IMG/VR virus record: IMGVR_UViG_2541047936_000005
DNA length: 22,476 bases
Origin: a virus
Lineage: Duplodnaviria; Heunggongvirae; Uroviricota; Caudoviricetes
Strand: one strand, 5' to 3'
How positions within the stretch are numbered: the first letter of the stretch is position 1; the number at the start of each line of letters is the position of its first letter. Below the pieces are notes generated by a model that ran no database searches, had not been told where the DNA came from, and saw only the letters and a list, made by a program, of their open reading frames with translations. Shown one piece after another: positions 7,295 through 7,741 of this stretch. The position numbers and the translations under genes were made by a program.

Positions 7295-7741
7295 CTGATG
7301 TATGTCTCCGTCACCGCCGACAGAAAATGAAAGTAAAGAAAAACAAAAAAGCCGCCAGTGTCACCCACTGACGGCCAACGCCGGGAGCCGTGATTATGGC
7401 ATTCAGGCTCTGCTAAAAATGCCAGATAACATTCCGGCCTCCCCTGATTCAGGTTATAAATGACACAATATCTTGACAACACCCGTCACTGTCTGTCAGA
7501 AAATATACCGCCAGGCATAAGTATCATGTGAAATCCAACTATCCTTCTGAGCCAGCACCTCTCCACCGAAAGTCAGTGCTGGCTGTTTTTTTCCTTAATA
7601 AAGCATCTGTAACTGAAACAATCCGCATATTGATAATATATTGACAGGCATCATTGCTGTCTGTGAAAAATAAGTCTCTACAAACATATAAGGCCTTTTA
7701 GCCAGCGTCTTCTTTTTCAGGTCAGTCGCTGGCTTTTTTTA

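Follow-up and report, generated by a model that had tools for sequence, protein, structure and literature searches.

The gap that separates the sialate esterase gene from the holin gene of a lambdoid prophage contains, on the strand opposed to the late operon, two short modules made of a common TTGACA box followed by a hairpin and a T-tract, which raises the question of what these modules encode and of whether they have been encountered before. In a first-pass annotation made from the letters of the DNA, they were taken for two short, independently terminated transcripts and as candidate Hfq-dependent small RNAs. The answer preferred here, with a probability of about 85%, is that the gap harbors two tandem and related genes for Hfq-binding small RNAs, antisense to the late operon. 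Both modules have already been described, the first one (unit 1) as PasA and the second one (unit 2) as EcOnc51/EcOnc52, and belong to the known Hfq-binding small RNA genes of E. coli prophages. The main value of the analysis lies in the annotation of abundant, multi-copy prophage small RNA genes which, devoid of an Rfam family and of any annotation in RefSeq or in phage records, therefore keep turning up unexplained in genome scans.

The esterase-holin gap and its repeated box

The window, i.e., the whole stretch of 22,476 nucleotides that was analysed, corresponds to a degraded lambdoid prophage adjoining torS, in which the structural genes have been lost and the effector genes nleB2, nleC, nleH and cif are present. 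The esterase and holin ORFs are annotated in near-identical phage and E. coli records, and the gap of 447 bp between them holds both units. The following features frame the gap:

7088 to 7294, - strand: class II holin ORF of 68 codons
7350 to 7376, - strand: strong intrinsic terminator of the late strand, about 55 nt upstream of the holin start, annotated in phage 434
7742 to 9592, - strand: SASA-family sialate esterase ORF of 616 codons, with its stop codon at 7742-7744

Units 1 and 2 are both located on the + strand, opposed to the late operon, and the T-tract of unit 2 ends one base short of the esterase stop codon, in keeping with the first-pass annotation, which had the two units pointing antisense to the late operon and stopping before the esterase gene. 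On the late strand, the terminator running from 7376 to 7350 probably ends the esterase transcript before the holin gene, and an esterase 3' UTR ending at 7350-7376 would be antisense to both small RNA genes.

The box TTGACA-N10-CTGTCTGT has two exact matches on the + strand of the 22.5-kb window, at 7473-7496 and 7641-7664, which are the two places where a shared box had originally been noticed, and no further copy occurs in the window with one mismatch allowed. From shuffled sequences, 0.01 matches are expected, and two matches occurred in none of the 100 shuffles. An A-rich stretch follows on the 3' side of each box (CAGAAAAT and GAAAAAT, respectively). The similarity of the two units extends past the box, their local alignment reaching a score of 28 as compared with a mean of 14.6 (sd 2.1, maximum 23) in 1000 shuffles; Tandem Repeats Finder made no call on the two units, owing to their too great divergence.

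Unit 1 and PasA

Judged from its sequence, unit 1 is an orthologue of PasA, the pathogenicity-associated sRNA A of EPEC E2348/69 (Pearl Mizrahi et al. 2021, PMC8550237). In that strain, PasA is encoded opposite the esterase gene E2348C_0688 and the holin gene E2348C_0689, and runs from 743499 either to 743415 (major isoform, 85 nt) or to 743264 (minor isoform, 236 nt) (PMC8550237 Table S6). Positions 7440-7750 of the window align without gaps to the E2348/69 locus, these surrounding 311 bp being 95.5% identical, and the features of PasA can be placed as follows:

7508 to 7592, + strand: unit 1 RNA, pasA orthologue, major isoform of 85 nt, matched base for base to E2348/69 NC_011601 743499-743415
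7508 to 7743, + strand: read-through ("minor") PasA isoform of 236 nt, spanning both units, mapped from the ends of PMC8550237 Table S6
7551 to 7560, + strand: PasA seed GCCAGCACCU, in the 5' arm of the unit 1 terminator (PMC8550237 Fig. S5)

Over its full length, unit 1 is identical to the PasA of E2348/69 at 74 of 85 positions (87%), with no gaps; all 11 differences are concentrated within the first 41 nt, and the last 44 nt, seed included, are identical. According to Zhu et al. 2026, membership of the PasA family is defined by nucleotide similarity over more than 75% of the length of E2348/69 PasA, and unit 1 displays this similarity together with the seed and 3' half, the location between esterase and holin, and the U-tailed terminator. 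Unit 1 and the PasA of E2348/69 also share the same gap, the same antisense orientation, the same promoter box and the same position of the 5' end, as well as the order pasD2-esterase-pasA.

The short, terminated + strand RNA that had been anticipated for unit 1 thus has a counterpart of 85 nt, verified by Northern blot in E2348/69, and the suspected link with Hfq is borne out in EPEC, where the stability of PasA depends on Hfq, with a log2 fold change of -2.8 in the hfq mutant (PMC8550237). By RIL-seq under activating conditions, 41 distinct partners and 4983 chimeric fragments were recovered for PasA (PMC8550237), which occurs as the second RNA in 94-100% of its chimeras. The window's own pasA allele would be expressed in a similar way.

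This allele is identical to the copy of Sakai Sp12 (L007 2451-2536), for which no peak appears in the published Hfq-CRAC list. With 35 loci in the sample for the window allele and 38 for the E2348/69 allele, the two are about equally common. A variant called PasA-2, with the same 3' end, divergent first 40 nt and a roughly equal frequency, is described in the 2026 preprint of Zhu, Shabalina and Storz (bioRxiv 10.64898/2026.05.13.724894), and the unit 1 allele of the window, as far as this published description goes, is probably PasA-2. The same preprint (bioRxiv 10.64898/2026.05.13.724894) mentions that the 5' end of PasA possibly results from the cleavage of a longer transcript; set against this suggestion, the longer PasA form of Table S6 keeps its 5' end unchanged and is extended at its 3' end.

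Unit 2 and the EcOnc51 and EcOnc52 peaks

Unit 2 matches without a difference the stretch of E2348/69 from which the 3' part of the 236-nt PasA isoform is transcribed. Its counterparts in EHEC O157:H7 Sakai are EcOnc51 and EcOnc52, two Hfq-CRAC peaks found in Sp12 and Sp4 (Tree et al. 2014, PMC4104026 Table S2), which have been cited as EHEC homologues of PasA (PMC8550237).

about 7676 to 7741, + strand: unit 2 RNA, about 66 nt if transcribed from its own promoter, with a putative 5' end, corresponding to EcOnc51/EcOnc52 of EHEC Sakai

After correction for the version of the Sakai sequence, both peaks map to unit 2 (Sp12, L007 2617-2693; Sp4, L008 2576-2499) and their 5' edges correspond to positions 7673 and 7675 of the window. 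The CRAC coordinates of 2014 refer to an older Sakai sequence, with an offset of +137 bp at Sp5 and Sp12 and of about 0 at Sp4. This offset was calibrated with AsxR, found by Rfam, at Sp5 (+137 bp), with the HnrS terminator and the mazF-complementary stretch at Sp12 (about +137), and with the published EcOnc08/21 probe at Sp4 (about 0). Read uncorrected on the current Sakai record, EcOnc51 falls on unit 1, an assignment that was rejected since the offset of +137 bp moves the peak to unit 2. By this mapping, it is unit 2 that carries EcOnc51 and EcOnc52, and the 85-nt PasA carries neither. The comparison with described prophage small RNAs, recommended by the first-pass annotation, has matched PasA as well as EcOnc51/52, and the Hfq link extends to unit 2 through these two Sakai peaks.

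Compared with the window, the Sakai unit 2 has a loop 2 nt shorter and one extra C before the T-tract (three indel positions differ), the rest of the sequence and the position against the esterase stop codon being the same. EcOnc51 and EcOnc52 are catalogue entries, for which no Northern blot, end mapping or targets are reported in PMC4104026. Their peak areas are nearly equal, which fits reads common to two identical copies, it being understood that a CRAC peak shows where Hfq binds and not where a transcript ends, and that reads from Sp4 and Sp12 are not separable. Unit 1 has been lost from Sakai Sp4 through the insertion of IS629, and about 40 bp remain there upstream of the unit 2 box. In EPEC, unit 2 corresponds to the RIL-seq segment pasA.E2348C_0688.IGR, which has five partners, escD among them, and takes the second position in 100% of its chimeras, thus behaving like the 3' end of a small RNA; its fragments (E2348/69 743267-743294) fall in hairpin 2.

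Putative promoter elements

The putative promoters of the two units comprise the following elements:

7473 to 7478, + strand: -35 hexamer TTGACA of unit 1 (pasA), consensus
7489 to 7504, + strand: CTGTCTGT and A-rich stretch of unit 1, with TG at 7494-7495 and CAGAAA at 7497-7502 (18-bp spacer), or alternatively GAAAAT at 7499-7504
7641 to 7646, + strand: -35 hexamer TTGACA of unit 2, consensus
7657 to 7671, + strand: CTGTCTGT and A-rich stretch of unit 2, with TG at 7662-7663 and either GAAAAA at 7665-7670 (18-bp spacer) or AAAAAT at 7666-7671 (19-bp spacer)

The TTGACA hexamer is invariant in all 26 distinct unit sequences, and CTGTCTGT with its A-rich stretch is near-invariant among the homologues. 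The 5' ends of PasA (743499) and PasC (1290909), as reported from RNA-seq, are each located exactly 30 nt past the last base of TTGACA, while the 5' edges of the EcOnc51/52 peaks are found 27-29 nt past the TTGACA of unit 2; in the case of AsxR, a CRAC peak of like kind lies within 2 nt of the RNA ends. Both spacings agree with TTGACA functioning as the -35 element. The -10 element is probably a weak, TG-extended one placed 18 bp past the -35 (TGtCAGAAA in unit 1, TGtGAAAAA in unit 2), with GAAAAT (20 bp) or AAAAAT (19 bp) as alternatives. The -10 elements are poor, and neither of the + strand promoters was called by a consensus promoter scan. A comparable promoter, TTGAAA-18-AAAAAT, belongs to HnrS, the ends of which have been mapped by dRNA-seq in the same prophages.

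Terminators and predicted folds

Each unit ends in an intrinsic terminator of the AGCCAGC...GCTGGCT type:

7550 to 7592, + strand: terminator of unit 1, stem 7550-7558/7576-7584 (AGCCAGCAC/GTGCTGGCT), then G and seven T's (7586-7592)
7700 to 7740, + strand: terminator of unit 2, stem 7700-7707/7727-7734 (AGCCAGCG/CGCTGGCT), with seven T's at 7734-7740

The hairpins with T-tracts announced downstream of the boxes are thus present, and the distance of 55 to 75 bp originally given for them was approximate, hairpin 1 being separated from the end of its box by 54 nt and hairpin 2 by 36 nt. On the opposite strand, no T-run follows either hairpin, and both therefore terminate + strand transcription only. 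In the record of phage 434, three terminators are annotated in the gap, and the two located on the antisense strand coincide with both hairpins. A consensus terminator scan caught only part of hairpin 2, because the loops exceed the limit of the scan.

Upon folding, the terminator of unit 1 consists of a 9-bp stem and seven U's. The stem is preceded by CCUUCU in unit 1 and by UUUU in unit 2. The unit 2 RNA is predicted to fold into an open 5' region of 24 nt followed by the terminator (-16.5 kcal/mol, z -3.5), and in both RNAs most of the 5' part is left single-stranded by the prediction. Hfq usually binds a module of this kind, made of a terminator hairpin and a U-tail, and both units display the general sequence features of Hfq-dependent trans-acting small RNAs, namely a U-tail of at least 6 residues, a U- or AU-rich upstream stretch and an accessible 5' region. 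A covariance analysis over homologues, another of the checks put forward at the outset, supports the stem: among 14 distinct units aligned, three of the nine terminator stem pairs have changed on both sides in a compensatory manner (C-G to U-A, A-U to G-C), and 96.8% of the stem cells are paired, against 21-48% with the partner columns slid.

Distribution and conservation

The 447-bp gap is 96-98% identical to the gap of Stx1a phages, H-19B, YYZ-2008 and phage 434, and 692 of 5426 complete E. coli genomes contain it, at a median of five places each. No RNA gene is annotated in the gap in the matching records, and the interval is matched by no Rfam family, whether the whole window is scanned at the gathering thresholds or positions 7250-7800 are scanned up to E = 10; weak Rfam matches (snoRNAs, Arrc14) were rejected as noise.

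IMG/VR contigs and fetched records yielded 114 full-length copies of the gap, corresponding to 73 distinct sequences. In viral contigs, the 14-base box pattern gives mostly chance single matches, and a locus was retained there only if it had two boxes spaced by 167-168 bp or showed similarity in BLAST. Depending on the copy, the gap is occupied by two units, by a single PasC-type unit, by unit 2 alone behind an insertion, by no unit, or by a single unit whose GCCAGTAC/GTACTGGC stem is set against the esterase stop.

Nucleotide diversity (pi) was determined segment by segment in 44 two-unit loci, chosen only through the C-terminus of the esterase:

Promoter 2 (47-nt segment, 7629-7675): pi 0.0009, the least variable part of the intergenic region
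Terminator 1: pi 0.008
Promoter 1: pi 0.02
Holin CDS: pi 0.053
PasA 5' body: pi 0.134, the most variable segment

The promoters and the terminator are therefore held constant while the 5' part of PasA diversifies, a pattern of constant and variable parts also described for AgvB and AsxR (Tree et al., PMC4104026). On a plasmid of about 92 kb, unit 2 occurs between IS elements, without unit 1 and with an esterase remnant of 130 nt; its promoter box is unchanged at 41 of 41 positions and the remainder has diverged by about 9%, the probability of 41 unchanged positions at that divergence being about 0.02. Among 185,579 species-representative genomes, the two-box module was found only in Escherichia albertii, in agreement with its reported restriction to Escherichia and Shigella.

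Is unit 2 a gene of its own?

We lean slightly towards the view that unit 2 constitutes a third PasA/PasC family member in its own right, transcribed independently, which arose when a 168-bp module of promoter, body and terminator was duplicated in tandem; recombination or deletion between the units would then have generated PasC and the single-unit variants. The simplest history suggested by the comparison of the copies would consist of such a tandem duplication, after which the copies diverged and deletions took place between the recurring AGCCAGC arms.

It is also possible, albeit rather doubtful, that a single gene, pasA, is present, unit 2 acting as a back-up terminator against read-through into the esterase antisense and its TTGACA box being a silent relic of the duplication. 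Such a reading is favored by the 236-nt minor isoform, which shares its start with the 85-nt form and stops at the second terminator (PMC8550237 Table S6), and in the EPEC study unit 2 is described only as the tail of the read-through PasA isoform (PMC8550237). Against it stands the promoter segment of unit 2, which is the most conserved part of the intergenic region and is also intact in copies severed from unit 1 by IS629, IS21 or other insertions, diverged plasmid copies among them. The -10 element of unit 2 is weak, the literature reports no Northern blot probed for this unit, and an Hfq-CRAC or RIL-seq signal at the 3' end does not show where an RNA starts; yet the CRAC peak begins at a promoter-like distance from the unit 2 box, the 27-29 nt mentioned above. 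Moreover, the ratio of unit 2 to PasA RIL-seq fragments shifts from 2.4% to 47% between two EPEC growth conditions, a change that is hard to reconcile with a constant rate of read-through and is more easily explained by a separate control of unit 2.

The relationship of both units to PasC points in the same direction as the duplication. PasC, from prophage PP5 of E2348/69, associates the promoter and 5' body of unit 1 with a stem of the unit 2 type (AGCCAGCG/CGCTGGCT), its terminator being placed directly against the esterase stop codon, and by its composition looks like a hybrid of unit 1 and unit 2. The sequence of PasC was taken from NC_011601 because the "variety 2" genome of E2348/69 lacks prophage PP5. 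The window has no such fused PasC-type gene: in global alignments, full-length similarity to PasC is lacking, with 55 of 85 positions (65%) identical for unit 2 and 62 of 86 (72%) for unit 1, and unit 2 matches PasC only in the terminator stem and the 3' flank.

In the 2026 preprint, PasA is aligned with PasC and the pasA copies are said not to be products of tandem duplication; its searchable text contains no mention of unit 2. The status of unit 2 as a tandem paralogue is the only part of the finding that may be new, and the novelty is modest. If true, it would correct the view of the literature that EcOnc51/52 are PasA homologues, confer the status of a separate gene on unit 2, which is unnamed in the literature, and amend the statement that pasA copies do not arise by tandem duplication. 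It would also provide a cleaner account of the kinship between PasA, PasC and EcOnc51/52.

Proposed mode of action and targets

According to the proposed scheme, the perfect -35 hexamer and the weak, TG-extended, A-rich -10 element would start the transcription of unit 1 at about 7508, and the intrinsic terminator would stop most transcripts at 7592, to give an 85-nt RNA in which the 5' part varies and is mostly open, and the terminator hairpin with its U-tail is conserved. Some polymerases would pass terminator 1 and reach the second terminator, thereby producing the 236-nt form. Unit 2, viewed as a diverged copy of the module with its own promoter box, would most likely yield its own RNA of about 66 nt (about 7676-7741). 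Both RNAs would be expected to pair with distant mRNAs with the assistance of Hfq.

The 41 partners of PasA in EPEC include type III secretion and bfp genes, as well as the 3' end of the neighboring esterase mRNA (PMC8550237), and the motif published for the PasA targets is complementary to the 5' arm of the terminator (PMC8550237). One instance of this kind falls in the window:

7757 to 7786, - strand: motif CUGAUGCUGGA, at the 3' end of the esterase gene, found in chimeras with PasA (PMC8550237 target list)

When the window was searched for targets, complementarities of at least 12 nt were confined to the small RNAs' own locus, and those of 9-11 nt remain at the chance level. No regulatory effect on any target has been reported for PasA or EcOnc51/52. 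Taken together, the type III secretion and bfp partners of PasA and the survival of the units in degraded prophages and virulence plasmids would make a regulatory link between prophages and virulence plausible.

A main action in cis, by which the RNAs, antisense to the late or esterase transcript, would tune the stability of the esterase mRNA or the expression of the holin and the timing of lysis, appears unlikely. Any late-strand transcript that traverses the gap is complementary to both RNAs over their whole length, the match lying in the late-strand RNA between the esterase stop codon and the terminator at 7350; chimeras of PasA with the 3' end of the esterase (743175-743305) were recovered by RIL-seq (PMC8550237), and an Hfq-bound fragment of late-strand RNA antisense to the PasA 5' end occurs in EPEC. 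Nevertheless, 36 of the 41 PasA partners correspond to coding regions or 5' UTRs, partners from the accessory genome account for less than 3% of the PasA chimeric fragments, and the units persist in degraded prophages and plasmids devoid of the holin or of most of the esterase gene. A cis-antisense role could possibly coexist with an action in trans.

A role of the box chiefly at the DNA level, as outward-facing overlapping promoters or as a protein-binding site, is improbable. In such a reading, transcription of the late strand in the direction of the holin would be driven by the - strand sites CAGACA-17-TATATT (7663 to 7635) and CAGACA-17-GATATT (7495 to 7467). It has the merit of accounting for CTGTCTGT and the AATAT upstream of it, which are ill-explained by a + strand promoter and would represent the -35 and -10 elements of the - strand, and the - strand site of box 2 was picked up by the promoter scan with 9 of 12 matches; the same scan, however, returned three promoter-like sites as compared with 2.2 in shuffles, which is the chance level, and no late-strand 5' end has been reported near the boxes. 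In any case, - strand promoters would add to the small RNA reading rather than replace it.

That the repeats represent remnants of duplicated coding sequence, an outcome which the first-pass annotation had itself envisaged, or a chance similarity, is very improbable: prophage late regions are indeed mosaic and rich in gene fragments, and a "hypothetical protein" is annotated over the left part of the gap in phage 2B8, but no ORF longer than 38 codons occurs in 7473-7741, the differences between homologues include indels of 1, 2, 5 and 15 nt, both the frequency of the box and the similarity of the units are far above chance, and the orthologues are expressed as RNA.

Relation to other small RNAs of prophage late regions

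The anti-sRNAs AgvB and AsxR and the small RNA HnrS (EcOnc10-12), all from EHEC prophages, resemble the two units in being short (51-66 nt), Hfq-bound RNAs encoded in prophage late regions and in associating a terminator with a variable 5' end. They differ by their sequences and locations. AgvB and AsxR, located upstream of the esterase gene beside the moron, have no sequence match to the units, and nothing in the window reached the gathering score of their covariance models (RF02702 and RF02703), nor did any hit up to E = 10 occur within 7250-7800; AsxR was recovered from Sakai Sp5, which served as the positive control. HnrS, which occurs between the Rz and terminase genes, has no sequence match to the units either, and was rejected as a different late-region small RNA whose locus has been deleted from the window. 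Two other candidates were discarded, EcOnc15, which corresponds to the tR' RNA between Q and stx1A, and EcOnc50, located at the start of stx2A.

The window also contains a pasD2-type gene (9679-9850, - strand, 97.7% identical). It is located 2171 bp from the start of pasA, and the resulting order pasD2, esterase, pasA and holin is the same as that of the commonest arrangement reported.

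Assignment of the catalogued small RNAs to unit 2

Both EcOnc51 and EcOnc52, two entries of the Hfq-CRAC catalogue of EHEC Sakai, have been cited as homologues of the 85-nt PasA (PMC8550237). According to a comparison made at the Sakai loci L007 (Sp12, with both units), L008 (Sp4), L209 and L212 (the HnrS locus of Sp12), the coordinates of the 2014 catalogue are shifted relative to NC_002695.2 by +137 bp at prophages Sp5 and Sp12, with no shift at Sp4. After correction for this offset, both entries fall on unit 2 and not on the 85-nt PasA, which corresponds to unit 1.

Unit 2 also occurs without unit 1 on E. 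coli plasmids of about 92 kb, e.g., at 3000-3160 of the plasmid locus L222 (NZ_CP051000.1), and 103 plasmid places were matched in a sequence search of complete E. coli genomes. On these plasmids, the unit is accompanied by a 130-nt remnant of the esterase gene and set between IS21- and IS3-family elements, and its promoter box is unchanged whereas the flanks have diverged by about 9%.

The late strand opposite the two units

Each box contains a promoter-like site on the late strand:
7663 to 7635, - strand, CAGACA-17-TATATT promoter-like site inside the unit 2 box
7495 to 7467, - strand, CAGACA-17-GATATT promoter-like site inside the unit 1 box

Such sites would explain why CTGTCTGT and the upstream AATAT are kept in both boxes. 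In a promoter scan they match at chance level, and no 5' end is known at either of them.

RIL-seq of EPEC recovered a late-strand fragment antisense to the 5' end of PasA (E2348/69 743494-743512), chimeric with PasB, an sRNA encoded by another prophage than that of PasA, and represented by 798 fragments under non-activating conditions (PMC8550237). It corresponds to 7495-7513 of the window, on the - strand.

The two-unit cassette is flanked by an imperfect inverted repeat of 19 nt (7444-7462 and 7756-7774; 79% complementary), which may be due to chance. The right-hand arm of this repeat overlaps with the CUGAUGCUGGA site at the 3' end of the esterase gene, a chimera partner of PasA (PMC8550237).

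Leader and terminator preceding the holin gene

The late-strand leader of the holin gene (7295-7472, - strand) has a strong predicted structure (z -3.6), a small hairpin overlaps the ribosome-binding site of the holin gene, and the leader includes a terminator:
7376 to 7350, - strand, intrinsic terminator about 55 nt 5' of the holin ATG

In lysogens, an esterase transcript probably ends at this terminator, so that probably only Q-modified polymerase gets to the lysis genes.

Surrounding elements and state of the prophage

Other elements identified in the window and in Sakai are:
9679-9850, - strand, pasD2-type sRNA gene with 97.7% identity to PasD2 of E2348/69
12031-12147, - strand, ALIL frameshifting pseudoknot belonging to an IS3-family element that has inserted into the early region of the prophage
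16861-16919, + strand, lambda cIII RNA thermometer
L212 1072-1137 (Sakai Sp12), HnrS

The pasD2-type gene lies immediately upstream of the esterase gene, on the strand of the late operon; the Rfam STnc100 model scores below threshold on it. HnrS, a recently characterised late-region sRNA of 66 nt, represses hha; in related prophages it occurs between the Rz and terminase genes, a segment deleted from the window. The head and tail genes are gone (window 1-6600), and the lysis genes are followed at once by remnants of tail-fibre genes and by genes for type III effectors (nleB2, a partial nleC, nleH and cif). The prophage region adjoins torS in the closest complete genome, in which the sRNA gap has been removed by deletion.
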